Source of the DNA: an uncultured virus (IMG/VR IMGVR_UViG_3300020137_000030)
Lineage: Duplodnaviria; Heunggongvirae; Uroviricota; Caudoviricetes
IMG/VR virus record: IMGVR_UViG_3300020137_000030
Length of the DNA: 20,000 bases
Strand: one strand, 5' to 3'
Position 1 is the first letter of the stretch. Every line of letters begins with the position of its first letter. The notes beneath the pieces were generated by a model that was not told where the DNA came from, searched no databases, and was given only the letters and a program-made list of their open reading frames with translations. Below are positions 1 through 20,000 of the stretch, in pieces. A program made the position numbers and the translations under genes.

Positions 1-45
1 CCTGCCGAGCCGACGCACGACTGTCACCTCTGGTGGCAGTCCCGC

Positions 46-117
46 GCACGTCTAGCTCAGCGGCAGAGCAGTCGGTCCACACCCGACCACGCGGGGGTTC
101 GAGTCCCTCGACGTGCA
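46..117 (+). tRNA. tRNA-Val(CAC)
   Basis: Cloverleaf GCACGTC/GACGTGC, anticodon arm GTCGG-TCCACAC-CCGAC, T-loop TTCGAGT; C at position 33. Confidence 0.88.
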
Positions 118-184
118 CGACCAGCCCTGGTCGCCCAGGTTGCGCTTCCGTGGGCACAACCTGTTCTGGCCGGGGCTGGCACAC

Positions 185-255
185 GCCCCACTGGTGTAGT
201 GGCAGCACGCCTGGTTCTCAGCCAGGCAGCGGGAGTTCGATCCTCCCGTGGGGTG
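185..255 (+). tRNA. tRNA-Glu(CTC)
   Basis: GCCCCAC/GTGGGGT acceptor, CCTGG-TTCTCAG-CCAGG, TTCGATC. Confidence 0.92.
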
Positions 256-542
256 CTCGGAGCGGGCGACGGCTCCAACCGAACGGCTCAGCCGGGACGG
301 CAGACGGTCGTACGGGACGAGGCCGCCAGCCTCGCTCTATGGGACCGGTACAGCCCGTGCATCCCGGTCACCAGCAGCAGCCCGGCCACTGGCGGTGGCC
401 GCTGAGGTACGCCCGGGCATGCGCCCCGAAGGACGGCTCGGCCGGGTCTGACCCGGCGGGTCGGCCGACCGCACTGGGACAGGCGGGAACCCGCCCGTGC
501 GGGACCGGCAGGCAGGGCTCGCCACCGGTCGACACGGGACGA

Positions 543-619
543 TGCGGAGTGGGGGAGAGGCGTCCCCGCCGGGCTCATAACCCGTGAGATCGCCAGTTCG
601 AGTCTGGCCTCCGCAACCA
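543..619 (+). tRNA. tRNA-Met(CAT), initiator-like
   Basis: TGCGGAG/CTCCGCA, GGG-CTCATAA-CCC (three G-C pairs typical of initiators), encoded CCA. Confidence 0.88.
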
Positions 620-620
620 C

Positions 621-717
621 GCCCTCGTAGCGCAGCCGTAGGACAGGAAGCCTCTTCCCCGCGCGAGCGGGGGTCGTTCTCGGGAGGTTGCAGGTTCGAG
701 TCCTGCCGGGGGCACCA
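621..717 (+). ncRNA. tRNA(Arg)-like scaffold whose D-stem 3' side and anticodon arm are replaced by a CRISPR-repeat-like sequence
   Basis: Intact acceptor GCCCTCG/CGGGGGC-A-CCA and T-arm GCAGG-TTCGAGT-CCTGC; no 7-nt anticodon loop; 97 nt long. Confidence 0.7.
652..680 (+). CRISPR. Solitary type I-E-like CRISPR repeat unit
   Basis: CTCTTCCCCGCGCGAGCGGGGGTCGTTCT (29 nt); core TTCCCCGCGC-AGCGGGG matches the E. coli I-E repeat GTGTTCCCCGCGCCAGCGGGGATAAACCG at 17/18 core positions. Confidence 0.6.
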
Positions 718-742
718 GCACCACCGAGGAAGGAGGGTCGCC

Positions 743-1069
743 ATGTCGGCCACAACATCGGCAGCGGTCCTGCTGCCGTCCCAGCTCGAGACCCGCGGCA
801 CCGCCGCCGTGCTCGTGCGCCACGCAGTACCCGCAGGCACCACCGACGTCGCGATCGGCGCCGTCGAGGCCGCATCAGTGTCCGCCGGGGCCGCCGACGA
901 GATCGTCAAGCGGCTCCTGGACGCCTCCGTGCAGCGGGTCGTCCTGGTCAACCCGCAGGCCGGGGTCGAACGGTCGCTGCGTCTGGCTCTGGCCCGTCGC
1001 AGCACCCGCGACCGCACGTTCCTGCTGTCGGTCCAGCACCGCAGCGACGACGTCCTGTACCCGGCCTGA
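743..1069 (+). CDS. Small protein (108 aa), possible STAS-like/DUF4325-type domain
   Basis: Strong SD AGGAGG before the ATG; LETRGTAAVL...SVSAGAADEIVKRL...VVLVNP pattern resembles STAS-like DUF4325. Confidence 0.6.
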   Translation: MSATTSAAVLLPSQLETRGTAAVLVRHAVPAGTTDVAIGAVEAASVSAGAADEIVKRLLDASVQRVVLVNPQAGVERSLRLALARRSTRDRTFLLSVQHRSDDVLYPA

Positions 1070-1102
1070 CCGGGTTCGCACGCCGCTTCCGGGCGGCACC
1101 AC

Positions 1103-1189
1103 GCCCCTGTGGTGGAAGTAGGTAGACACGCCGGTCTCAGGAACCGGTGCCCGGCGACGGGCGTGCGGGTTCGACTCCCGCTCGGGGCA
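1103..1189 (+). tRNA. tRNA-Leu(CAG)
   Basis: CCGGT-CTCAGGA-ACCGG, long variable arm, TTCGACT; one acceptor mismatch. Confidence 0.88.
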
Positions 1190-1343
1190 CGGGTCCACCG
1201 TGGTGGACGACGATCTTGGAAGCCGACGCGACCTCACCGTCGCCGACAGCGCCCTCCCGGGCGGGTCAGGACCCGGGGACCGAGCCGGACGGCGAGCACC
1301 GGTAACCCGCGGCGTGCCCGGTGAGGGGTGCGGGCGCGGGCCT

Positions 1344-1420
1344 GCCCGCCTAGCTCATCTTGGTAGAGCGGCGACCTCGTAAGTCGCAGGTGCCCGGTTC
1401 GAGACCGAGGGTGGGCTCCA
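1344..1420 (+). tRNA. tRNA-Thr(CGT)
   Basis: GCGAC-CTCGTAA-GTCGC, encoded CCA. Confidence 0.92.
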
Positions 1421-1464
1421 CGGGGTGGCCGTCGGACCGCCCCCGACCGGTTGCGGCCGGTCAT

Positions 1465-1539
1465 GCCCGGCTGGCTCAGTGGCAGAGCGCACCCTTGGTA
1501 AGGGTGAGGTCGCGGGTTCGATCCCCGCGCTGGGCTCCA
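1465..1539 (+). tRNA. tRNA-Thr(GGT)
   Basis: CACCC-TTGGTAA-GGGTG, encoded CCA. Confidence 0.95.
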
Positions 1540-1567
1540 CGCGTGTCGCCGGCGTCACGGGCGACGA

Positions 1568-1640
1568 GGGGCTGTAGCTCAGTCGGGAGAGCGCCGATCT
1601 GAAGAGTCGGATGTCGCTGGTTCGATCCCAGCCGGTCCCA
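1568..1640 (+). tRNA. tRNA-Phe(GAA)
   Basis: CCGAT-CTGAAGA-GTCGG, canonical D and T arms. Confidence 0.93.
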
Positions 1641-1644
1641 CCTT

Positions 1645-1731
1645 GCCCTCGTGGCGGAAGCAGGTAGACGCGCTGCCTTGAGGAGGCAGTGCTCCGCGAG
1701 GAGCGTCCCGGTTCGATCCCGGGCGAGGGCA
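1645..1731 (+). tRNA. tRNA-Leu(GAG)
   Basis: CTGCC-TTGAGGA-GGCAG, long variable arm. Confidence 0.93.
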
Positions 1732-1734
1732 CGA

Positions 1735-1851
1735 GGCACGGTCAACGTCACCGCCGACGGTTCCCTGTTCGCCGTCGTCGGAGCGAAGGTGAGACAGCCC
1801 TGCGTGGCACCGCTGCCCGACTCCGGGGCGGTGGGTCTGGCCTGCCGTGCC
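1735..1851 (+). ncRNA. Putative structured RNA motif, copy 1 (three-way junction, TCAACGTCA/AGCGA core)
   Basis: GGCACGG/CCGTGCC closing stem; junction sequence shared with 1931-2022. Confidence 0.55.
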
Positions 1852-1854
1852 CTT

Positions 1855-1927
1855 GCCCCTCTGGCCCAACAGGTAGAGGCGTCCGGCTCAAATCCGGAAT
1901 CTCCCGGTTCGACTCCGGGGAGGGGTA
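1855..1927 (+). tRNA. tRNA-Leu(CAA), short variable arm
   Basis: TCCGG-CTCAAAT-CCGGA, 4-nt variable loop as in actinobacterial Leu(CAA). Confidence 0.88.
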
Positions 1928-1930
1928 CGA

Positions 1931-2022
1931 CGCGGTCAACGTCACCGACCGGGCACGATGCCCGCGCCGGAGCGAAGGGCGGCCAGACGGACCCTCCCAT
2001 GGTCCGTGCCGTACCTGCCGCG
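1931..2022 (+). ncRNA. Putative structured RNA motif, copy 2
   Basis: CGCGG/CCGCG closing stem; same junction core as 1735-1851 with different helices. Confidence 0.55.
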
Positions 2023-2026
2023 CCAT

Positions 2027-2116
2027 GGAGGGCCCAGCCGACTGGCGGCGGCACCTGCCTCGAATGCAGACTGCGGGCTTCGCGTCCGCGTGCGGGTTCG
2101 ACTCCCGCGCCCTCCG
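2027..2116 (+). tRNA. tRNA-Ser(CGA)
   Basis: GGAGGGC/GCCCTCC-G, CTGC-CTCGAAT-GCAG, long variable arm. Confidence 0.85.
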
Positions 2117-2121
2117 CACAT
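2114..2121 (+). promoter_or_regulatory. CCGCACAT motif overlapping the tRNA-Ser 3' end
   Basis: Exact motif; may be a tandem promoter or a coincidence. Confidence 0.35.
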
Positions 2122-2134
2122 CTGCGGCCACGTG

Positions 2135-2142
2135 CCGCACAT
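2135..2142 (+). promoter_or_regulatory. CCGCACAT putative -10-like element
   Basis: Exact motif; 9-nt spacing predicts a start at G2152, the first base of a closed RNA structure. Confidence 0.7.
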
Positions 2143-2151
2143 AGGTACTTC

Positions 2152-2229
2152 GAGCGAGAGACCCCGCCACAGTGGTAGCGGGGCGAGCCGGGCACATGAA
2201 CCCGGCCACGACGCGGACCCGTGTCGCTC
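2152..2229 (+). ncRNA. Putative four-way-junction small RNA
   Basis: GAGCGA/TCGCTC closing stem enclosing hairpins CCCCGC/GCGGGG, GCCGGG/CCCGGC and CACG/CGTG. Confidence 0.45.
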
Positions 2230-2271
2230 GAGTCGGTCCGAAGTCGGTGGGACTGCAGCCCGCCGGCACAT

Positions 2272-2343
2272 GGGGAGGCAGCACGATGGTGGTGCAGCTG
2301 CTTTGCAAGCAGTCGGTTGCGGGTTCGAGTCCCGTCCTCTCCA
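2272..2343 (+). tRNA. tRNA-Ala(TGC)
   Basis: GCTGC-TTTGCAA-GCAGT, G3:U70 pair. Confidence 0.92.
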
Positions 2344-2375
2344 CGAGGCACCTCGGTGCCTGAGCAGTACCCAAC

Positions 2376-2728
<353 letters not shown>

Positions 2729-2875
2729 GTGAACCTCGAGCACGACACGCCGACCGCCCTTGCCGAGCGCGGTCAACCAGGCGGCTCGACAGACCCAAGG
2801 GCGCCCGCGGGTCTGGCATCTGGCCCGGATGCGGTCGAGGGGACCCCGATACCAGGCGATCGGGAGGGCACACCA

Positions 2876-2949
2876 CTGGACGTAGCGCAGATGGCTAGCG
2901 CGTCCGCTTTGGGAGCGGAAGGTCGCGGGTTCGAGTCCCGCCGTCCGGA
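2876..2949 (+). tRNA. tRNA-Pro(TGG)
   Basis: TCCGC-TTTGGGA-GCGGA. Confidence 0.94.
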
Positions 2950-3138
2950 CGTAGCCGCCGTGTGCGGCACCTGCCCGCGGACCACCCTGCCGGTCCGGCC
3001 GCGGGCCGAGTGGACCGGCGATGGGTGCTCACGCGAGTCGACCCGAACTCGACCCAGGAGCGGACGCGAAGCGCCTGCGAATGGGTGGAGGTACAACTCG
3101 ACTCGCCCCGCCGCTGCACGAGCGATCGTGCAGCGTGC

Positions 3139-3211
3139 GCCTCCTTAGCTCATCAGGTAGAGCGGCTCCCTTGTAAGGGGCAGGCGGCCGGTTCGACCCC
3201 GGCAGGAGGCT
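3139..3211 (+). tRNA. tRNA-Thr(TGT)
   Basis: GCTCC-CTTGTAA-GGGGC. Confidence 0.92.
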
Positions 3212-3257
3212 CGCAGCCGCACGACGCGGCGTCGCAGCGCGAACCCTTGCGGCACAC

Positions 3258-3328
3258 GCCCCCGTCGGCCATGGGTAGGCCCGGAGCCTTTCAAGCTCCT
3301 GAACAGGGTTCGAGTCCTTGCGGGGGAA
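3258..3328 (+). tRNA. tRNA-Glu(TTC)
   Basis: GGAGC-CTTTCAA-GCTCC; G1:A72 mismatch. Confidence 0.85.
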
Positions 3329-3360
3329 CCTGCAGCCCGCGCGAGCTGCGATCGCGCCAT

Positions 3361-3432
3361 TCCCTGGTAGCTCAATGGCAGAGCGCCCGCCTGTTAAGCG
3401 GACGGTTCCTGGTTCGAGTCCAGGTCGGGGAG
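3361..3432 (+). tRNA. tRNA-Asn(GTT)
   Basis: CCGC-CTGTTAA-GCGG, TCCCTGG/TCGGGGA-G. Confidence 0.92.
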
Positions 3433-3436
3433 CCCA

Positions 3437-3522
3437 GGTGGGTTGGCAGAGTGGCGAATGCAGCCGTCTTGAACACGGTAGGCCGGGCGACCGGTCCGGG
3501 GGTTCGAGTCCCTCACCCACCG
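3437..3522 (+). tRNA. tRNA-Ser(TGA)
   Basis: GCCGT-CTTGAAC-ACGGT, long variable arm. Confidence 0.92.
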
Positions 3523-3526
3523 CCGA

Positions 3527-3611
3527 GGAGGATGAACCGGGCGAGGCCCGGCGCCGGTTGCTAGCCGGTCGGGCGGCGCGAGCCGCTGGGTGGCGGGAAC
3601 TCCGTCCTCCG
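3527..3611 (+). tRNA. tRNA-Ser(GCT), non-canonical T-loop
   Basis: GGAGGAT/GTCCTCC-G, GCCGG-TTGCTAG-CCGGT; T-loop GGCGGGA. Confidence 0.7.
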
Positions 3612-3615
3612 CCGA

Positions 3616-3700
3616 GGAAGAAGAACCGCCTGGGAGGCGGCGCCGGTTGGAAGCCGGTCGGGCGGCGCGAGCCGCTGGGGATCGTGCCCTCCTTCTTCCG
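3616..3700 (+). tRNA. tRNA-Ser(GGA), non-canonical T-loop
   Basis: GGAAGAA/TTCTTCC-G, GCCGG-TTGGAAG-CCGGT; T-loop ATCGTGC. Confidence 0.75.
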
Positions 3701-3805
3701 CGGGGCCGCCGACGCCCGGTCCGTCCATCGCCTTCGCACAGCGGTGTCCGGCCGAACAAGGCAGAGCCACCGTCACGTGCCGAGGCGTCGTGTCGGTGGT
3801 CTCTT

Positions 3806-3878
3806 GCGGACGTAGCGCAGCTGGCAGCGCGCCACCTTGCCAAGGTGGAGGTCGCGGGTTCGATCCCCGTCGTCCGCT
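3806..3878 (+). tRNA. tRNA-Gly(GCC)
   Basis: CCACC-TTGCCAA-GGTGG. Confidence 0.95.
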
Positions 3879-3883
3879 CTCGG

Positions 3884-3955
3884 TCCCCGCTGGTGCAACG
3901 GCAGCACGCAGGCCTTTGGAGCCTCGAGGTCCGGGTTCGAGCCCTGGGCGGGGAG
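3884..3955 (+). tRNA. tRNA-Gln(TTG)
   Basis: AGGC-CTTTGGA-GCCT, TCCCCGC/GCGGGGA-G. Confidence 0.92.
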
Positions 3956-3972
3956 CACGCTACGGTCGCACC

Positions 3973-4144
3973 GTGCCCGTGACCGTGACCGCCCGACGAC
4001 CACGGTCCAGCACCGGACCGTCAGGTGCGCACGGAGGCGGCCAGCGGTGACACCTACGAGCAGGCACGCGACGACCTGTTCGCCAAGATCCCCGACGGCT
4101 GGCGTGTCATGCACCTGAACGTCAGCCGGGACACGCCCCTGTAG
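3973..4144 (+). pseudogene. Possible small or frameshifted hypothetical gene (...GDTYEQARDDLFAKIPDGWRVMHLNVSRD)
   Basis: Frame 4025-4144 has coding-like GC3 codons and a protein-like sequence; the upstream part appears to be in other frames. Confidence 0.35.
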
Positions 4145-4207
4145 CTCAGCGGAAAGAGCGCCCGCCTACGGAGCGGGAGGCCGCTGGTTCGATCCCAGTC
4201 GGGGGCA
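4135..4207 (+). tRNA. tRNA-Arg(ACG)
   Basis: CCCGC-CTACGGA-GCGGG. Confidence 0.94.
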
Positions 4208-4230
4208 CCCCTCGCGGCTGTCGGCCGCAC

Positions 4231-4302
4231 GCACGGCTAGCTCAGCGGTAGAGCGCCTCGCCGACGCCGAGGTGGTCCGAGGTTCGAGTCCTCGGCCGTG
4301 CA
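4231..4302 (+). tRNA. tRNA-Val(GAC)
   Basis: CCTCG-CCGACGC-CGAGG; C33 and G37. Confidence 0.87.
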
Positions 4303-4304
4303 CT

Positions 4305-4380
4305 GTGCCTGTAGCGCAACTGGCAGCGCGCCTGGATGTGGCCCAGGAGGTTGCGGGTTCAAGTCCCGTCAGGCACCCCA
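4305..4380 (+). tRNA. tRNA-His(GTG)
   Basis: CCTGG-ATGTGGC-CCAGG, C73, CCA; the -1 base is T. Confidence 0.92.
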
Positions 4381-4406
4381 CGTCCGGGCGGTGACGCTCG
4401 GCACCT

Positions 4407-4480
4407 CGTGCTGTGGCCGAGAGGCGAGGCGGCCGCCTGCAAAGCGGTGCACGCGGGTTCGATCCCCGCCAGCACGTCCA
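4407..4480 (+). tRNA. tRNA-Cys(GCA)
   Basis: GCCGC-CTGCAAA-GCGGT, U73, CCA. Confidence 0.93.
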
Positions 4481-4482
4481 TG

Positions 4483-4490
4483 CCGCACAT
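4483..4490 (+). promoter_or_regulatory. CCGCACAT putative -10-like element (internal tRNA-array promoter)
   Basis: Exact motif; predicted start near 4500, 6 nt before tRNA-Arg(CCT). Confidence 0.7.
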
Positions 4491-4505
4491 AGGCGAGGTG
4501 CGCAC

Positions 4506-4581
4506 GCCCCCGTAGCTCAGAGGACAGAGCGGCCGGTTCCTAGCCGGCGGGTCGCCGGTTCGACTCCGGCCGGGGGCGCCA
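4506..4581 (+). tRNA. tRNA-Arg(CCT)
   Basis: GCCGG-TTCCTAG-CCGGC, CCA. Confidence 0.94.
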
Positions 4582-4582
4582 C

Positions 4583-4658
4583 GCCCGTATAGCTCAGAGG
4601 ACAGAGCGCCCGGCTTCTACCCGGGGCGGCCCGGGTTCGAGTCCTGGTGCGGGCACCA
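4583..4658 (+). tRNA. tRNA-Arg(TCT)
   Basis: CCCGG-CTTCTAC-CCGGG, CCA. Confidence 0.93.
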
Positions 4659-4659
4659 T

Positions 4660-4735
4660 GCGGACGAGGCGCCACTGGCGGCGCACCAGGCTTCCAACCT
4701 GGCCGTAGCGAGTTCGAGTCTCGTCGTCCGCTCCA
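4660..4735 (+). tRNA. tRNA-Gly(TCC)
   Basis: CCAGG-CTTCCAA-CCTGG, U73, CCA. Confidence 0.92.
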
Positions 4736-4817
4736 CAGGGTTTCGCGGGGCCTGCAAGGGCCGACCCTCCGGTCGCTGGGCCGGTGACGGCGTGGCCGTC
4801 GATCAAACCGCGAGCGA

Positions 4818-4890
4818 TCGGGATCGGTGTGCTGGCCCGCCAACGAAGCTCTGACCTTCGCCTACCCAGGTTCGATTCCTGGATCCCGAG
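4818..4890 (+). tRNA. tRNA-Gln(CTG)
   Basis: CGAAG-CTCTGAC-CTTCG, TCGGGAT/ATCCCGA-G; weak D arm. Confidence 0.85.
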
Positions 4891-4934
4891 CCCGACGGCC
4901 CCTGGCCGACCAGACCGGCGCCGTCGCACGCCCA

Positions 4935-5008
4935 CGGGCTGTGGCGAAGCTTGGTATCGCGCCCCGTTCGGGACGGGGAGGACGCCGGTTCGAGTCCGGC
5001 CAGCCCGA
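4935..5008 (+). tRNA. tRNA-Pro(CGG)
   Basis: CCCCG-TTCGGGA-CGGGG. Confidence 0.95.
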
Positions 5009-5039
5009 CCGCCACCCCGCTTCTCGTCTCTGTGCTGTT

Positions 5040-5047
5040 CCGCACAT
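5040..5047 (+). promoter_or_regulatory. CCGCACAT putative -10-like element (HNH-deaminase unit)
   Basis: Exact motif, 9 nt before an ATG at 5057; the HNH GTG start with SD lies at 5097. Confidence 0.7.
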
Positions 5048-5096
5048 TGCAGCGTCATGCCCGGCAACCAGCCGGACCGAGCGAAGGAGACGGCAG

Positions 5097-5543
5097 GTGC
5101 CCCAGCCAGGAGTCCTCGTCCTCAACGCGGGCATGGAACCGCTGCACCGCGTATCGCTGCGGCACGCGGTCGGGATGCTGCTGCGCGAGGTCGCCGTCGT
5201 GCACGAGCGGGTCGAGGGGCAGACCTTCGGACCGTTCCCCCGCCCCCTCGTCGTGCGGCTCGTCCGCTACGTGAAGATGGGGTGGGCGTACGCCCGCGGG
5301 GGCCTGGGCCCGGTCGTCTCGAAGTCCGGCGTCAAGCGCCGCGACGGTGTCTGCGCGTACTGCGGCGGCGCACCCGAGACCGTCGACCACGTCCAGCCCC
5401 GCTCCCGCGGCGGTGCGTCGACGTGGCAGAACCTCGTCGCCGCGTGCATCCCGTGCAACCACCGCAAGGCTGACCGAACCCCGACGGAGGCTGACATGCC
5501 GCTGCTGTACGCGACCCCGTTCGTCCCGCAGGGTGCCTGGTGA
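5097..5543 (+). CDS. HNH endonuclease family protein
   Basis: VLVLNAxxEPL N-terminus; CAYCG..TVDHVQPRSRGG..WQNLVAACIPCNHRK; SD AAGGAG before the GTG. Confidence 0.92.
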   Translation: MPQPGVLVLNAGMEPLHRVSLRHAVGMLLREVAVVHERVEGQTFGPFPRPLVVRLVRYVKMGWAYARGGLGPVVSKSGVKRRDGVCAYCGGAPETVDHVQPRSRGGASTWQNLVAACIPCNHRKADRTPTEADMPLLYATPFVPQGAW

Positions 5544-8264: not shown

Positions 8265-9116
8265 TCAGGCGGGTCGCACGGACTCGACCGGGGCCCGCAC
8301 GAGCCTCCCACGGTCGCGCAGGTGGACCACCACACTGGTGCGCCCGACCCTGGTGACCGGCCCCGACTCGCCGTCGTACTCGTGGCCGGGCAGGTCGATC
8401 GTGACGGTGTCGCCCACCTTGAGCGTGACCGTCGCCTTCGGTTCCGGGTGGCGGGCGACGGCGGCAGCGACCTGCGGGTCGACGACGTTGCGGGTCCACT
8501 CGAAGCGCCGCTCGTCGGGGGCCTGGTCGCGCGGGTGGTCTCGGTGCCCGCAGTAGCCCAGCGTGCGCTTGCGCGGCGACGGCATCCGACCCTGCGTGAC
8601 GGTGTGCCCCGACGGGCAGGTCCCCACGACCGCCGCGGTCTGGACGGTGACGTCCTGGTCGAGCCGGACCGTGGCTGTCGGGTCGGCCCCGAGACGCAGC
8701 GCGGTCGCCTGCCAGCGTGACCCGTGCCCGTCGTGCGGGCCGCACAACGCGTGGGCGACCTCGTGCAGGACCGTGTCGAGCCGCTCGGCGCCGTCCACCG
8801 CGGCCATCTTCGGCCCGGACAGGACGATCAGCCGCCGGGCGTGGTGGGTGGACCCCAGCCGGGACCCGAGCTTGGACGTGTACGCGAGCGTCCAGTCGTG
8901 CAGTCCGTGCTCGTCCATCGTCTTGCGCGCCTGCACGTACAGGGCGTCGAGCAGGTCTCCGGGTGCGACGTGCGGGTCGTCGGCGTACGGGTCGACGGCG
9001 GGTGGTTGCGCCTCGAGCGTGACGGCGGGCTCGTCGCGCGCCTTCGTGACGAACTGGCCTGCCCCGGCCCCGGGGGCACGGTTGCGCGGGTGGGCGGACT
9101 CGACGAACGTTGCCAT
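8265..9116 (-). CDS. SprT-like zinc metalloprotease domain protein with N-terminal HPR peptide and C-terminal SH3/KOW-like domain
   Basis: LLDALY..HGLHDW..RLG..TVLHEVAHAL..GHGSRWQ; tail LKVGDTVTI..GPVTRVGRTSVVV. Confidence 0.85.
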   Translation of the reverse strand: MATFVESAHPRNRAPGAGAGQFVTKARDEPAVTLEAQPPAVDPYADDPHVAPGDLLDALYVQARKTMDEHGLHDWTLAYTSKLGSRLGSTHHARRLIVLSGPKMAAVDGAERLDTVLHEVAHALCGPHDGHGSRWQATALRLGADPTATVRLDQDVTVQTAAVVGTCPSGHTVTQGRMPSPRKRTLGYCGHRDHPRDQAPDERRFEWTRNVVDPQVAAAVARHPEPKATVTLKVGDTVTIDLPGHEYDGESGPVTRVGRTSVVVHLRDRGRLVRAPVESVRPA

Positions 9117-9125
9117 GCCCGATGG

Positions 9126-9133
9126 ATGTGCGG
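9126..9133 (-). promoter_or_regulatory. CCGCACAT putative -10-like element (minus strand)
   Basis: ATGTGCGG on +; 9 nt before the minus-strand ATG at 9116. Confidence 0.8.
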
Positions 9134-9141
9134 GGCGGGTG

Positions 9142-9149
9142 CCGCACAT
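9142..9149 (+). promoter_or_regulatory. CCGCACAT putative -10-like element
   Basis: 9 nt before ATG 9159. Confidence 0.8.
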
Positions 9150-9158
9150 CGAAGCAGC

Positions 9159-9485
9159 ATGGACACGACCGCCGAGCCGATGGAGCGCACCTGCATGATC
9201 TGCGGGCGCAGCGAGCTGGATCACCCCGCGCGCGGCTGGCGCAACGCCTGCTTGGTCGCGTTCGAGGCGAGCCGCTCCACCTACGCGCAGGGGGAGCAGC
9301 GTGCATCTCTGGGCCTGTGGCCCGCCGCGGCGTGGGAGGCGTTCCAGCGGCTGCACGCCCTGACCGCGGCCACGTTCCGTGACGCGCCGGAGCCGGACGT
9401 CGCCGAGTGGGTGGACCGCCTGCAGGCCGAACGGTCCCGTCAGGGGCGCGGCAGCCTCTACCAGCTGCCCGTCCCGCTGTTCTGA
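9159..9485 (+). CDS. Hypothetical protein (108 aa) with CxxC..H..C motif
   Basis: MDTTAEPMERTCMICGRSELDH..NAC; start fixed by motif spacing. Confidence 0.7.
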   Translation: MDTTAEPMERTCMICGRSELDHPARGWRNACLVAFEASRSTYAQGEQRASLGLWPAAAWEAFQRLHALTAATFRDAPEPDVAEWVDRLQAERSRQGRGSLYQLPVPLF

Positions 9486-13280: not shown

Positions 13281-13358
13281 CTCTTCCTCGCTTCATCGGC
13301 CGTGTCAACCCCGTGCGCCATAGAACATGCGCCGGAAAGCGACGGGTTGCCGGGCACG

Positions 13359-13366
13359 CCGCACAT
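13359..13366 (+). promoter_or_regulatory. CCGCACAT putative -10-like element
   Basis: 9 nt before ATG 13376. Confidence 0.8.
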
Positions 13367-13375
13367 CTACCCCTC

Positions 13376-14158
13376 ATGAGCGACTTCGAGAGCCTGCACC
13401 CCAGACATTCGGCCGGGACGAGCGGGGCTGGTCAGTTCGCGACGAAGGTGCACGGCGAGTCGTCGGTCAGTCTCGAGGCGTTGGACGCCCCCGGGGGAGC
13501 GGACGCCTTCGTGGACCACATCTGGCGGGCGGCCGCCATGATCCAGTCGTCCGGTGCGCACGGCGCCAGCACGCACGCACGCGCCCTGCTGGCGCTGCAG
13601 GAGCGGGCGCTGGCGCAGACCCCTGACGTCGACCCCGACGTCGCCCGGGACGACTTCTGCGTCCCGATGCTGACGGCCGCGCTCGAGGGGCGCGACGAGC
13701 AGGTGGCGCAGCTCGCCGCACGGCTCGCCGACCTGGACGCGGCAGAGCGGGCGTGGCGCGCCGACCCGACGTTCACCCCGCCGCAGCCGTGGGACGGGCT
13801 CGAGGTGGACGCCGCGACCGGCGCCCAGCACACCCGGGCTGACATCGTGACCGCGCAGCGGGCGGGGTACCTGCCTGCTGGTGCCCGCTTCGAGGTGCGC
13901 CCGTACCAGAGCCCGGCGGGAGGGATCATCGACGTCGTCGTGCGTGACATGCCGGCCCACGACGTCTACCAGGCACAGGCCCCGGCCACCTTCCGTCGCC
14001 GCTACTCGGCGTACGCGGCGCAGGTGCGCGAGCGGGTGCGCCGCATCGGTCAGGTCTACTGCGTGCCGCGGGAGCAGGCGGCAGCGGGCGGCCACGTCAC
14101 GCGGACCTGCTTCGTCGAGATCCAGGACGGCCCCGAGCGCGCGGGCACCAGCATCTGA
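13376..14158 (+). CDS. Hypothetical protein with N-terminal HPR peptide; C-terminus resembles LPD29-like polyvalent-protein domains
   Basis: MSDFESLHPRH..GAGQFATK; RADIVTAQRAGYLPAGARFEVR..GGIIDVVV. Confidence 0.75.
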   Translation: MSDFESLHPRHSAGTSGAGQFATKVHGESSVSLEALDAPGGADAFVDHIWRAAAMIQSSGAHGASTHARALLALQERALAQTPDVDPDVARDDFCVPMLTAALEGRDEQVAQLAARLADLDAAERAWRADPTFTPPQPWDGLEVDAATGAQHTRADIVTAQRAGYLPAGARFEVRPYQSPAGGIIDVVVRDMPAHDVYQAQAPATFRRRYSAYAAQVRERVRRIGQVYCVPREQAAAGGHVTRTCFVEIQDGPERAGTSI

Positions 14159-15248: not shown

Positions 15249-18200
15249 ATGAGCACCACGACCTCGCGCGGCTTCGTGCACCTGCACACGCACGTCGAAT
15301 ACTCTCCGCTGGACGGCATGGCCCGCATCGCCGACGCCGTCGCCGCGGCCGCTGCCGACGGTCAGCCCGCGATCGCTGAGACCGACCACGGGACGCTCGC
15401 CGGGGCGTGGAAGCTGCGCGCGCTGGCCGCGAAGCACGGGATCAAGGCGATCCCCGGCATCGAGGCGTACATGGCGATCGGCACCCGCCACGACCCGCAG
15501 ATCATCGAGGTGCCCGCCGACGAGGAGTCGGGCGACGCCATCGACGACGACAAGGGCACGGTCGGCGCCACGGGCGAGATGCGCATGAAGCGCAAGGTGT
15601 ACGAGCACCTGACGATCCTGGCGACCAGCCAGGAGGGGTGGCGCAACCTCGTGCGGATGCACAACAGCGCCCAGCAGACCTACTCCCCGTCCGGACGCGG
15701 GCTGGCCAAGCCGCAGCCGTTGATGGACTTCGCGCTGCTCGAGCAGCACCGCCAGGGCCTGATCGTCCTGACCGGCTGCATCGGCGGCGGGGTGGCGGGC
15801 GCCCTGGCGCGCGGGGACCGCCCCGCGGCGGAGCGCTACCTGGACGAGCTGGTGCGGATCATGGGCACCGACAACGTGTTCGTCGAGGTCATGGACCACG
15901 GCATCCCCGCCCAGCGCACGATCGCGCCCGCGCTGCGCGAGCTCGCGCAGCAGTTCGGTGTCGGTCTCGTGGCGACGAACGACGCGCACTACGCGCGCGC
16001 CGACCAGCAGGACGCGCACGAGGCGTGGCTCGCTGTCGGCACCAAGGCGACGCTCGCGCAGGAGAACCGCTTCAAGTTCCACGGCACGGGTCACCACCTG
16101 CGCACCGAGGCGGAGATGCGGGCGCTGTTCGACGGTGAGGACTGGTGGCAGCAGGCGTGCGACAACACGGTCGCGATCGCCGACCGTGTCGCGGACGACG
16201 TGTTCGGCCCCACACGCCAGCGGCTGCCGGTCTACGACGTGGCGACGCTGCACCCCGACTACGAGCCGAGCGCGACGGTGGACCGCAGCGACCCGCGCGC
16301 GATGTCGAACGCCTACTTCCGGTACCTGGTGTCGCTGGGTGCCCGCGAGCGCCTGGGCCTGACTTCCGACGCGAAGCTGCCGCCGGAGGTGAACGCGCGC
16401 ATCTCGTGGGAGTACAAGGTCATCACCGACCAGGGGTTCGCCGACTACTTCCTCATCGTGCGGGACGTGATCGAGTGGTGCCGTTCGACGCGCGGCCTGC
16501 CGACGAAGGCGCACCCGCGCGGGCGTGACGGGCAGAAGAAGCCGATCCGGGTCGGTCCTGGGCGCGGCAGCGCGGCGGGCTCGTTCTGCTCGTACGCGCT
16601 GCGGATCGTCGGCCCCGACCCGATCAAGAACGGACTGCTGTTCGAGCGGTTCCTCGACCCCGAGCGCGCCGGCATGCCCGACATCGACGTGGACTTCGAG
16701 CAGGGGCGACGCGGTGAGGTGCTGGCGTACCTGTCGCGCCGCTGGGGTGCTGACAAGGTCGCGCAGATCGGCACGTTCGGCATGGCGCGCACCAAGGCGG
16801 CGATCAAGGACGCCGCGCGCGTGCTCGGCATGACGCCGCTGGGGGAGAAGCTCTCGAAGCTCGTGCCGGTCGAGGGTGGCAAGCCTGTGGCGATCGCCGT
16901 GCTGGAGGACCCGGAGAACCGTGCCGGTGCGGACTTCCGCGCGGCTGTGGCTCGCGGCGGGGCCGATGCGGTCCGGATCATCGACCTGGCGAAGTCGTTC
17001 GAGGACGTCATCAAGACGCCCGGCGTGCACGCGTGCGGTGTGCTGATCTCCGACGAGCCGCTGCACGACCTGGTGCCGTTGCGCGCGAACCGCTCGAAGT
17101 CGGCTGGCCCGAACGCGCCGATGGTGACCGAGTGGGACGGCAACGACGTCGCCGACTACGGGCTGCTCAAGCTCGACGTGCTCGGGCTGCGCAACCTGGA
17201 CGTGGTGTCCCTGGCCGTGGACTACATCGCCGAGCGAACGGGGGAGGTCGTCGACCCGGACGAGGTCGACCCCGACCACGACGACGCCCGCGCGCAGGCG
17301 ACGTGGGCCCTGCTGCGCGCCGGGAAGACCCCAGGCGTCTTCCAGATGGAGTCAGAGGGTATGACGAAGCTCGCGCAGGATGCGGGCCCCGACAGCCTCG
17401 ACGACCTGTCGACGATCGTCGCCCTGTACCGGCCGGGACCGCTCGGCCAGGGCATGCACCACCACTGGGCCGCTCGCAAGCGCGGCACCGAGGCGGTGGA
17501 CTACTCGATCTTCACCGACGACCCGGCCGAGCAGGCGGCTATCGCCACGGTGCTGGACGAGTCGATGGCGGTGCCCGTGTTCCAGGAGCAGTCGATGCGC
17601 CTGGGCGAGGCAGTGGCAGGGTTCGGGCCGGGCGAGAAGAACCGGCTGCGCAAGGCGATCTCGAAGAAGAAGGAGGCCGAGATCGCCGCGATCGGCGAGC
17701 TGTGGGCGGCGGGGGCCGGCAAGGAGATCCGCGACGAGGACGGCAACGTCACCAAGATCGCGTTCTCGAAGCGGACCGCCGACCGGGTGTGGGACGCGAT
17801 CAAGGAATCCGGCCGCTATCAGTTCAACAAGTGCTTGTCGGGGGACACCACCGTCGAGACCGGGCGGCACACCACCTGGACGATCGCCGACCTTCACCGA
17901 CGCCTGCACGAGAACGAGCGCCGCGCGGACGGCATGTGTGCGGCCTGCGTGCAGCGACCTTCGCGGGCTGGTTCGCCCATCTGCGGAGCCTGCGCCCAGT
18001 GGCGACGGATGGTTCGAGGGAAGCGCGGCCTGCACGTGCTCGCCTACGACTTCGCGGACGGGCGCATCCGCCCCAAGCGTGTCAAGGACGTGCACGACAA
18101 CGGCGTGCGCGAGGTGCTCCTGATCACCCTTGCCGACGGGAAGGCCCTGCGGGCCACCCCCAACCACCGGCTCATGTCGGGCGGGCGCTGGGTGCTGGCT

Positions 18201-20000
18201 GGCGACCTGTCTGCAGGTGACAGCCTCACGACCAGCGCCGGCTACGAGGCTCCGGTGTGGGACGGCGGGTACCGCCTGACGCAGGGGGAACGCCAGGGTG
18301 CCCCGGGCAGGCTGTACGCGCCGGGGGAGCAGAACATCGGGTACGTCGATGGGGGCCACGTCGCACTCAAGGCGTGGACCGCACAGACGGCCCCCACGGC
18401 CGCCTGTGGCGTGTGCGGAACTTCGGAGGGCCGCCTCGAGCGTGCGCACCTCGACGGGAACCGCCGGAACAACACGTCCGAGAACCTGCGCTGGCTGTGC
18501 GTCTCGCACCACAAGCCCCACGGCTACGAGCACAACGGTCGGCGGCGGAAGTGGGGCAAGGGTTATGCGACGGCCGAGGCCGAGGTCGTGTCGGTGGTCC
18601 CTGATGGCCAGGTTCGTACCTACGACCTCGAGATGGACGACGAGGGCCACAACTTCGTCGCGAACGGCATCGTCTCGCACAACAGCCATTCGACCGCATA
18701 TGGGCAGATTGCTTTCATGACGGCGTGGCTCAAGGCGAACTGGCCTGCCGAGTTCGCGGCGGCGATCCTGGCGACGACCAAGAAGAACCCCGACAAGCGC
18801 CTCGCCGCGATCATGGCGATGCGCGCCGAGGGCATCGAGCTGCTGCCACCCGACTGCAACCTGTCGATGGAGGACACCGCACCGGAGGGCGACAACGTGC
18901 GCCTGGGCCTGTCCGAGGTGCGTGGTGTCGGCGCGAACGCCGCGGCGATCATCGCCGCCCGCGAGTCCGGCGGTCCGTTCACCGGGCTGGCGGACCTGCT
19001 CGCCCGGGTCCACGCGGCCCCCAAGTCGGCCGACACCGACGAGGCGGACGACGAGCAGGCCGACGAGCAGGAGGCCGGTGCGGCACTGCCGGTCAACGTC
19101 GTGGAGCAGCTCATCGAGGCTGGGGCCATGGACGCCTTCGGCCCCCGGCTCGGCCAGTTCATGGTGGTCCGCGCGCTGCGCGAGCACCCCGAGCTGGCAG
19201 TGCCGGACGTCGAGTGGGGCCTGCTGGAGCGCTCCGGGCGCCAGCGCGTCGCCATCGGCGTCGTGACCGGCGAGCACCCGCTGTCCGTCCTGGGCGAGCA
19301 GCTGCGCGGGTACCGTGCACCGAACAAGCAGACCGTCCGCTCGGTCGCGAGCATCGACACCGCCCCCGAGCGGGGGCGCGTCACGGTCCTGGGCGTCCTG
19401 GCCGGGTACGGGGAGAAGGCGTACTCCAAGGGCCGCATGGCCCGCATCGCCGTGGAGGGCACGAACGCTTCCGCCGAGGGCGTCATGTGGGACGACGACC
19501 GCACCCGCATCGACTTCGAGCCGACCGTCGGCCAGGTCGTCGCGATCAGCGGAGACGTGCGCCTGCGCGAGGTCGAGGTCGAGAACGAGGAGGGGGAGCT
19601 CGAGACCATCGAGCGGCGCGAGCTCACCATCCGCGACATGTGGCTCGTCCCCGTGCAGGACCCGGCCACCGACCGGTTCCACGTGACCGTCGACCCCATC
19701 CATGTCGACCCGCAGCGCGTGGTCACCCCGCCGCTGGCGCTGGTCCAGGCCGGGGTGGAGGTGCCGCTGCAGGCCTACCAGGTCTCGCTGCCGGACCCGG
19801 TCGTCATGAGCCTGGGCGACCTGCTGCCGAACGCGCCATGGCTCAGCGAGCCGCAGCAGGGGGTCTGGGTCGCCGGTAGCGGCTCCGACGCGGTCGTCGT
19901 GCAGGTCGGCAAGGCCACCACGGCGCTGCTCAACCACGCCCGCACGGTCGCGATCGACAACGAGCAGCCCGGATGGGTCGCAGTGGCGGCCGCCCCGTGA
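15249..20000 (+). CDS. dnaE: DNA polymerase III alpha subunit, intein-containing
   Basis: PHP motifs FVHLHTHVEYSPLDG/TDHG/TNDAHY; GPGRGSAAGS, MPDIDVDF, LLKLDVLGL, FNK|SHSTAY; TGA at 19998-20000. Confidence 0.96.
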   Translation: MSTTTSRGFVHLHTHVEYSPLDGMARIADAVAAAAADGQPAIAETDHGTLAGAWKLRALAAKHGIKAIPGIEAYMAIGTRHDPQIIEVPADEESGDAIDDDKGTVGATGEMRMKRKVYEHLTILATSQEGWRNLVRMHNSAQQTYSPSGRGLAKPQPLMDFALLEQHRQGLIVLTGCIGGGVAGALARGDRPAAERYLDELVRIMGTDNVFVEVMDHGIPAQRTIAPALRELAQQFGVGLVATNDAHYARADQQDAHEAWLAVGTKATLAQENRFKFHGTGHHLRTEAEMRALFDGEDWWQQACDNTVAIADRVADDVFGPTRQRLPVYDVATLHPDYEPSATVDRSDPRAMSNAYFRYLVSLGARERLGLTSDAKLPPEVNARISWEYKVITDQGFADYFLIVRDVIEWCRSTRGLPTKAHPRGRDGQKKPIRVGPGRGSAAGSFCSYALRIVGPDPIKNGLLFERFLDPERAGMPDIDVDFEQGRRGEVLAYLSRRWGADKVAQIGTFGMARTKAAIKDAARVLGMTPLGEKLSKLVPVEGGKPVAIAVLEDPENRAGADFRAAVARGGADAVRIIDLAKSFEDVIKTPGVHACGVLISDEPLHDLVPLRANRSKSAGPNAPMVTEWDGNDVADYGLLKLDVLGLRNLDVVSLAVDYIAERTGEVVDPDEVDPDHDDARAQATWALLRAGKTPGVFQMESEGMTKLAQDAGPDSLDDLSTIVALYRPGPLGQGMHHHWAARKRGTEAVDYSIFTDDPAEQAAIATVLDESMAVPVFQEQSMRLGEAVAGFGPGEKNRLRKAISKKKEAEIAAIGELWAAGAGKEIRDEDGNVTKIAFSKRTADRVWDAIKESGRYQFNKCLSGDTTVETGRHTTWTIADLHRRLHENERRADGMCAACVQRPSRAGSPICGACAQWRRMVRGKRGLHVLAYDFADGRIRPKRVKDVHDNGVREVLLITLADGKALRATPNHRLMSGGRWVLAGDLSAGDSLTTSAGYEAPVWDGGYRLTQGERQGAPGRLYAPGEQNIGYVDGGHVALKAWTAQTAPTAACGVCGTSEGRLERAHLDGNRRNNTSENLRWLCVSHHKPHGYEHNGRRRKWGKGYATAEAEVVSVVPDGQVRTYDLEMDDEGHNFVANGIVSHNSHSTAYGQIAFMTAWLKANWPAEFAAAILATTKKNPDKRLAAIMAMRAEGIELLPPDCNLSMEDTAPEGDNVRLGLSEVRGVGANAAAIIAARESGGPFTGLADLLARVHAAPKSADTDEADDEQADEQEAGAALPVNVVEQLIEAGAMDAFGPRLGQFMVVRALREHPELAVPDVEWGLLERSGRQRVAIGVVTGEHPLSVLGEQLRGYRAPNKQTVRSVASIDTAPERGRVTVLGVLAGYGEKAYSKGRMARIAVEGTNASAEGVMWDDDRTRIDFEPTVGQVVAISGDVRLREVEVENEEGELETIERRELTIRDMWLVPVQDPATDRFHVTVDPIHVDPQRVVTPPLALVQAGVEVPLQAYQVSLPDPVVMSLGDLLPNAPWLSEPQQGVWVAGSGSDAVVVQVGKATTALLNHARTVAIDNEQPGWVAVAAAP
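17832..18683 (+). mobile_element. Intein (284 aa) with HNH-type endonuclease, inside DnaE
   Basis: Begins CLSGDT after FNK; block B LRATPNHRL; ends TYDLEM..HNFVANGIVSHN followed by Ser+1; internal CGVCG..HLDGNRRNN..NLRWLCVSHH. Confidence 0.93.

Follow-up and report, generated by a model that had tools for sequence, protein, structure and literature searches.

The hammerhead ribozyme core consists of CUGANGA and GAAA, and the small RNAs C4 and CI act as antisense RNAs through two loops, with targets located in the same operon. C4 and CI are hairpin-like substrates of RNase P (PMC5499578), C4 is listed for Proteobacteria and phages (PMC2864571), and the satellite sRNA SviR of the Vibrio cholerae PLE, which is conserved across PLEs and has proven targets, lowers translation of the helper phage (bioRxiv 2022.04.08.487710). 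Theta ribozymes are nested double pseudoknots with a catalytic C, 58% of their occurrences being tRNA-associated (PMC10879173), and the GOLLD and ROOL RNAs occur near tRNAs and in prophages (PMC5737381).

Here, we analyzed a 20,000-nucleotide stretch of DNA from an uncultured virus (hereafter, the window), in which two related RNA motifs, copies A and B, directly follow two tRNA-Leu genes. Both copies belong to a real, structured RNA family of actinobacterial mobile elements that is apparently undescribed.

Two copies of a three-way junction RNA in a tRNA array

The array, the two copies, their parts and the flanking tRNA genes are arranged as follows.

46–5010, + strand: tRNA array hosting both copies, all on one strand, with 28 tRNAs and a tmRNA found by ARAGORN and one further tRNA found by Rfam
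1645–1731, + strand: tRNA-Leu(GAG), discriminator at 1731
1735–1851, + strand: copy A, following tRNA-Leu(GAG); 54.7 bits with a covariance model that includes copy A
1735–1742 and 1844–1851, + strand: helix P1 of copy A, 8 bp, with a U.G pair at the junction
1743–1750, + strand: first junction strand of copy A
1751–1781, + strand: P2 arm of copy A
1782–1786, + strand: second junction strand of copy A
1787–1843, + strand: P3 arm of copy A, with two terminal hairpins and no kink-turn
1855–1927, + strand: tRNA-Leu(CAA), discriminator at 1927
1931–2022, + strand: copy B, following tRNA-Leu(CAA); 52.8 bits with the covariance model
1931–1936 and 2017–2022, + strand: helix P1 of copy B, 6 bp
1937–1944, + strand: first junction strand of copy B
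1945–1970, + strand: P2 arm of copy B
1971–1975, + strand: second junction strand of copy B
1976–2016, + strand: P3 arm of copy B, with a pyrimidine-rich apical loop at 1994–2000; CCA directly follows the copy
2027–2115, + strand: tRNA-Ser(CGA)

Coordinates and letters bear out the original prediction that both copies start immediately after a tRNA-Leu discriminator (1731 and 1927) plus CGA, a trinucleotide that is not specific to the motif, being present at four out of 28 listed tRNA or tmRNA ends, including those of tRNA-Val and tRNA-Ala. The two-part core common to both copies is present at two places in the window and was absent from all 200 shuffles. The three-way junction fold was distinctive on the + strand (z = -2.30 for copy A and -2.22 for copy B), with unremarkable folding of the - strand (z = -0.38 and -0.52, respectively).

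The predicted layout of P1, P2 and P3 around a three-way junction was right in its topology, but a U and a G that had been drawn as unpaired junction bases in fact pair with each other, so that the junction strands measure 8, 5 and 0 nt and P3 adjoins P1 directly. Three junction bases could form a short extra helix, with hardly any covariation. Similarly, the helices do differ between the copies and stay paired, as had been proposed, except that the P3 arm of copy A carries two hairpins rather than a single one. In both copies the closing helix is short (6–8 bp), and the kink-turn pattern described below was sought and found in neither. A third copy, suspected at position 1 from the letters CCTGCCG, is unsupported: this heptamer is present 12 times on the + strand of the window, and an unfiltered model search of the window returned the two copies only, the next best match scoring 13.3 bits.

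The host element

The surrounding DNA was compared with the genome of Pseudactinotalea terrae, in which 10 out of 15 tested window proteins have homologues around a similar tRNA array (nine by tblastn, and the ORF at 743–1069 by BLASTP).

743–1069, + strand: ORF inside the tRNA array, 108 aa; the P. terrae array contains an ORF with 38% identity to it (BLASTP)

This ORF matched nothing in Pfam or PHROG and, by eye, may be STAS-like. Window proteins include an HNH protein, a dCMP deaminase, an exonuclease, DNA methylases, a glutaredoxin and an intein-bearing DnaE (15249–20000; Pfam Intein_splicing), whose tblastn alignment to the P. terrae homologue omits the intein part. A scan of 63 ORFs from the P. 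terrae element region gave zero matches to capsid or terminase families; the same ORFs encode an AAA_10 ATPase, an M23 peptidase, a prepilin peptidase, a ParA-like ATPase, an integrase, RtcB and two sigma factors. This gene content suggests that the window is a piece of a conjugative mega-element or megaplasmid. Within the array, a tRNA-like gene at 621–714 was missed by ARAGORN and matched by Rfam, and another at 3525–3605, also missed by ARAGORN and 79% like the adjacent tRNA-Ser(GGA), is probably tRNA-Ser(GCU). The tmRNA of the window (2376–2730) carries the tag AKSDFSLTA, and that of the P. terrae element AKSDFALVA.

Copy B together with the tRNA end (1904–2023) aligned at 76% over 131 nt (blastn) with the only copy that the P. 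terrae tRNA array carries; the closing helix is identical and both tip loops are different. Judged by sequence, copy B is the ortholog of this P. terrae copy, whereas copy A is a paralogue that has diverged further. When the window region and two family members were compared by BLAST with named phages and plasmids, all matches were to tRNAs or due to chance.

Neither a sigma-70-type promoter nor a + strand terminator was found within positions 1–5200. In RNA run X4, one contig (1273–2925) spans both copies with zero differences, which is not proof of transcription because X4 also covers protein genes. Elsewhere in the window, the motif CCGCACAT recurs 14 times, its 9-mer form 10 times versus 0.28 expected, often shortly upstream of start codons in genes without a clear Shine–Dalgarno sequence.

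2114, 2135, 4483, 5040, 5994, 6120, 6950, 9142, 9510, 10670, 11673, 13359 and 15233, + strand: CCGCACAT
9133, - strand: CCGCACAT

In 160 kb from P. terrae, 55 of the 56 occurrences fell between 1,011 and 1,111 kb, a region that also encodes the two sigma factors. The motif is probably an element-specific promoter for short-leader mRNAs. In addition, at 8724–9198 and 13313–13430, a short H-P-R...GAGQF peptide motif was observed at the start of two ORFs, visible as a 58-nt inverted repeat.

A covarying RNA family of Actinomycetota

Searching with the core pattern returned 20 viral loci, 17 of which passed a structural descriptor, and with wider scans the set grew to 103 distinct copies, spread over 90 loci and the window, with lengths of 90–165 nt. 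Among genome loci, 62 out of 112 passed the descriptor and 60 of these 62 were from Actinomycetota, as read from record titles. A covariance model search added further copies and loci beyond the pattern scans and placed the family in at least six out of 151 Streptomyces genomes (centre included; 24 candidates scored per genome). A very loose pattern applied to 401 Actinomycetota genomes gave mostly unstructured matches, so no prevalence was drawn from it, and a metagenome scan contained one true member among 14 loci, with no recovery of the contig from which the window comes.

In line with the original view that the core matches no recognised ribozyme, neither copy had a match in Rfam 15 at E <= 5; for 40 locus sources compared with Rfam, nothing on the element came near gathering. 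In the literature, we found no description of the family and no regulatory RNA family of this kind for actinobacterial phages and satellites; six supplement files of PMC10690425 had no match to the motif, and the supplements of PMC5737381 and three files of PMC10690425 may yet contain it. Known ribozyme folds were also considered. The original prediction had called the topology hammerhead-like, which holds for the three stems around a conserved junction and not for the core: CUGANGA was present in none of the 103 copies, and neither was its combination with GAAA. A crude HDV-like descriptor fitted neither window copy, and covariation supports a plain three-way junction instead of a theta/HDV-like fold.

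Support for this junction, and thus for a conserved structured RNA, was strong. In an alignment of 69 sequences, 85.4% of paired cells were compatible with pairing, versus 64.6% after shuffling and 37–44% in slid controls, and 17 out of 25 pairs vary on both sides. RNAalifold recovered the same fold unaided. Because the descriptor demanded 5 bp in P1 and 3 bp in each of the other two helices, with a preference for longer ones, the invariance of the core and the innermost base pairs are in part a product of these requirements and of the search patterns.

Anatomy statistics were taken from 84 copies, dereplicated by closing helix. P1 pairing amounted to 57–85% at base pairs 6–13 (35–42% expected) and fell to background at base pairs 14–16, and CCA followed the closing helix in 21 out of 43 long-P1 copies, versus 2–7 out of 43 in seven later sequence windows. 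This 13-bp ruler is not universal, since 34 of the 84 copies carry helices of 8 bp or fewer, mostly without tRNAs. A 13-bp helix followed by CCA has the shape of a hairpin-like RNase P substrate, cleavage itself being a prediction.

Both the ruler and the CCA trailer would also suit an RNA with no antisense role that signals processing or stability, binds a protein or acts as a decoy, and in which the core and the 13-bp helix would recruit RNase P or a host protein to cut, protect or titrate and the arms would be spacers. We consider this explanation unlikely but realistic, and the observations below bear on it again.

A kink-turn consists of a 3-nt bulge and tandem G.A pairs between two stems. 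This pattern was present 7–8 bp into P3 in 34 of the 84 copies, and in none of the 84 in each of two controls.

Genomic context and alternative functions

Outside the window, adjacency to a tRNA is the exception. The RNA adjoins a tRNA in one of the 90 outside loci, the P. terrae copy, and any tRNA lies in the fetched flank of five out of 90; both window copies and the P. terrae ortholog begin no more than 5 nt from the 3' end of a tRNA, and the remaining 89 outside loci do not. One metagenome copy is located about 40 nt upstream of tRNA-Pro. With adjacency so rare, theta-like trimming of tRNA 3' trailers, as originally proposed, is not supported as the function of the family. In two proviruses (L002 and L019), a T-arm-like hairpin immediately precedes the RNA, at a distance of about 15–45 nt, and ARAGORN found no tRNA there.

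Most members instead follow a stop codon closely; their carriers are prophages or satellite-like islands, and arrays of 2–4 are frequent. By crude gene calls, an ORF on the same strand ends no more than 50 nt before the RNA in 41 out of 69 loci, and a same-strand ORF lies downstream in 53 out of 68. At least 38 out of 74 loci with long flanks have a gene of one of these kinds (capsid, tape-measure, terminase, HNH, RecT/YqaJ, SSB, Rad52-like or RusA) among the two nearest ORFs on either side. In Streptomyces prophages, arrays of mostly 2–4 copies, a few nucleotides apart, sit downstream of a conserved 157-aa ORF, between conserved early genes and YqaJ/RecT or RusA. An ORF of 150–163 aa was present just upstream of the arrays at nine loci (L018, L020, L045, L048, L092, L181, L182, L203 and L215); in the scanned copies, neither this conserved prophage protein nor the ~122-aa protein before it matched Pfam or PHROG. 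Many members occupy small islands of the chromosome, together with an HTH_17 gene and a gene for a capsid or tape-measure protein.

L151, L165, L196, L209, L217: island loci, first set
L163, L183, L192, L194, L197, L198, L199: island loci, second set

By gene content, such islands resemble capsid-forming phage satellites of Actinomycetota. Across contexts, no partner gene family recurred among the neighbouring ORFs; for the processing or protein-binding explanation, which the position after one ORF and before another on the same strand also favours, this suggests a host protein as the partner.

The same contexts were weighed against three further explanations. The first, already raised in the original prediction, is a new class of small self-cleaving ribozyme, which would cut phage polycistronic RNA and, in the window, tRNA trailers. 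It would account for a near-invariant junction with variable stems, bacterial hammerheads have similar contexts, in prophages, behind stop codons and in tandem (PMC3088659), and the window copies begin 3 nt past the tRNA discriminator, inside the +-5 nt given for theta ribozymes (PMC10879173). Still, we judge such a class improbable: the hammerhead core was found in none of the 103 copies and an HDV-like fit in neither window copy, the P2 and P3 loops do not pair with each other, several core changes are tolerated in Streptomyces paralogs, tRNA adjacency is confined to that single outside locus, and a ribozyme needs neither loops complementary to Shine–Dalgarno sequences nor a CCA trailer.

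Secondly, the RNA could be a cis-acting element controlling transcription or translation of downstream genes, such as a put-like antiterminator or an attenuator, in keeping with its same-strand position within phage operons and the placement of Streptomyces arrays before YqaJ/RecT or RusA. The downstream genes are highly varied, however, the next gene in the window is a tRNA, and the loops paired with the start of the downstream gene in none of 67 cases at z < -2, which makes this option quite improbable.

Finally, SSB, RecT, Rad52-like, terminase and capsid genes among the neighbours would fit a signal in folded single-stranded DNA that serves replication, packaging or recombination. The invariant U.G pair, the kink-turn, the CCA trailer, the strand-asymmetric folding and the co-orientation with transcription all indicate RNA, and we regard a DNA signal as highly improbable.

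Loop contents and target searches

Across the 84 copies, the loops were biased toward complements of translation-start regions. CATG occurred in 14 P2 loops versus 2.1 after shuffling, and TCCT, CTCC or CCTT in 44 P3 loops versus 21.4; neither count was reached in any of 300 shuffles, figures that overstate significance because family members share ancestry. Palindromes, sense ATG without C and words of the Shine–Dalgarno sense were not enriched in the same loops. CATG is restricted to a minority of P2 loops and missing from the P2 loop of both window copies, and the two signals co-occur weakly (p = 0.08). The order of the loops, P3 then P2 when read as antisense, corresponds to the geometry of Shine–Dalgarno sequence, spacer and start codon. 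Within Streptomyces prophage arrays, paralog-specific loop words appeared by eye to be kept across phages. P2 and P3 loops showed no mutual complementarity (-1.96 versus -1.95 kcal/mol), and with palindromes not in excess either, kissing or dimer models were rejected.

Target searches for the family loops were all negative or non-significant. Within +-2.5 kb, candidate matches numbered 14 out of 79 for own loci and 100 out of 544 for other loci, hence without excess, and two-part loop patterns had no target in their own genomes or records. In 42 larger regions, matches of at least 11 nt were seen in 20% of own versus 10% of other comparisons, mostly away from gene starts. A two-loop test over 5.8 Mb gave a score of 58 for true pairs, 52 for swapped pairs and 39–56 for shuffled ones (not significant), and a search of whole own prophages revealed no significant target excess. 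Individual matches were rejected as well: a 14-nt match in one genome (G045) lies on the non-coding strand of a flanking gene, and a 13+9-nt match of one member (L174) to the start of a head-module gene in another phage fails for the same gene in the genome of that member. Streptomyces P2 tips pair with a distant prophage gene at its start, a bulge of 4–7 nt interrupting the pairing, and own-versus-cross specificity of this lead reached p = 0.10 in 10 prophages.

In the window, one exact complement was found.

732–739, + strand: Shine–Dalgarno sequence of the ORF at 743–1069, an exact 8-nt complement of 1990–1997 in the P3 tip of copy B

This site was the best of 15 window gene starts for the P3 loop of copy B, statistical support being absent, and is suggestive only as a candidate target of copy B.

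The lack of targets counts in favour of a processing signal or protein-binding RNA, which leaves unexplained, however, why loops are biased toward complements of start codons and Shine–Dalgarno sequences and why arrays hold several copies with different conserved loops.

A putative two-loop antisense RNA

Taken together, the biased loops and the closing helix of 13 bp with its CCA favour a processed antisense RNA over a new ribozyme. Our leading, still tentative reading, to which we give slightly less than even weight, is an antisense RNA that is excised, can be retargeted and uses two loops to block the start of translation, C4/CI-like in action though not homologous to either. The covarying three-way junction with its near-invariant core would be a fixed scaffold, and the two arms, variable in length and sequence, would present exchangeable tips.

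Copies in prophages and satellites would first be cut from long transcripts by RNase P at the 13-bp helix with its CCA trailer. In the window, where the helices are short, maturation of the flanking tRNAs could release the RNA instead: copy A would owe its 5' end to 3' maturation of tRNA-Leu(GAG) and its 3' end to an RNase P cut at the 5' end of tRNA-Leu(CAA), and, correspondingly, the 5' and 3' ends of copy B would result from 3' maturation of tRNA-Leu(CAA) and an RNase P cut at the 5' end of tRNA-Ser(CGA). The junction, aided in many members by the kink-turn, would then position both tip loops, so that the P3 loop could pair with the Shine–Dalgarno region while the P2 loop paired with the start codon and the codons right after it, thereby blocking initiation. 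Duplication followed by loop change would amount to retargeting and give rise to arrays of 2–4 different copies. As none were found nearby, the targets probably lie elsewhere, in the host, in a helper phage or in a competing element.

A more far-reaching version, possible but in our estimation unlikely, is that phages, satellites and conjugative mega-elements of actinobacteria carry a naturally reprogrammable guide-RNA system that forms arrays. Here, a constant scaffold mimicking a tRNA end would be excised by host RNase P or tRNA maturation, two guide loops would jointly read ~20–25 nt of mRNA comprising the Shine–Dalgarno sequence and the start codon, and each array copy would silence a different gene of the host, helper phage or rival element, with no need for an element-encoded protein.

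To our knowledge, Actinobacteria lack Hfq-type sRNA machinery. If the antisense reading is true, mobile elements in conflict with one another would be using a self-excising translation repressor that can be retargeted, and the RNA would offer a scaffold for gene knock-down in Streptomyces and relatives; if it self-cleaves instead, it would constitute a new ribozyme class.

Comparison with known systems

Type I hammerheads share with the family three stems around a conserved core as well as prophage and tandem contexts (PMC3088659), but the family has junctions of 8, 5 and 0 nt and lacks CUGANGA. Like the window copies, theta ribozymes are structured RNAs that immediately follow tRNA genes on mobile DNA; in contrast to their double pseudoknots, the family forms a nested three-way junction closed by one helix, and it adjoins a tRNA in one of 90 outside loci. 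GOLLD and ROOL occur in the same tRNA and prophage contexts, but are large and ornate, whereas the family measures 90–165 nt and has no Rfam match.

As a sequence homologue, C4 was rejected: the best hit to RF01695 scored 19.6 bits versus a gathering threshold of 45 (E = 8.9) and was out of register. In architecture, C4 of phages P1/P7 and CI of satellite phage P4 are, like many members of the family, small phage or satellite RNAs with a long closing stem and a branched top. The Rfam consensus of C4 also has a pyrimidine-rich loop and a CCA-like 3' end, and the bias of the family's loops toward complements of translation-start regions adds to the likeness with both. The family differs in being actinobacterial, in its core, in its kink-turn, in its multi-copy arrays with different loops and in lacking an excess of loop-complementary targets in its own loci and prophages. 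SviR, likened here by description and not by sequence, is a mobile-element sRNA too, and many family members lie in islands with capsid, terminase and tape-measure genes, although their loops vary and their targets are putative. Most plausibly, the family works like C4/CI or SviR, as a processed, branched antisense RNA.
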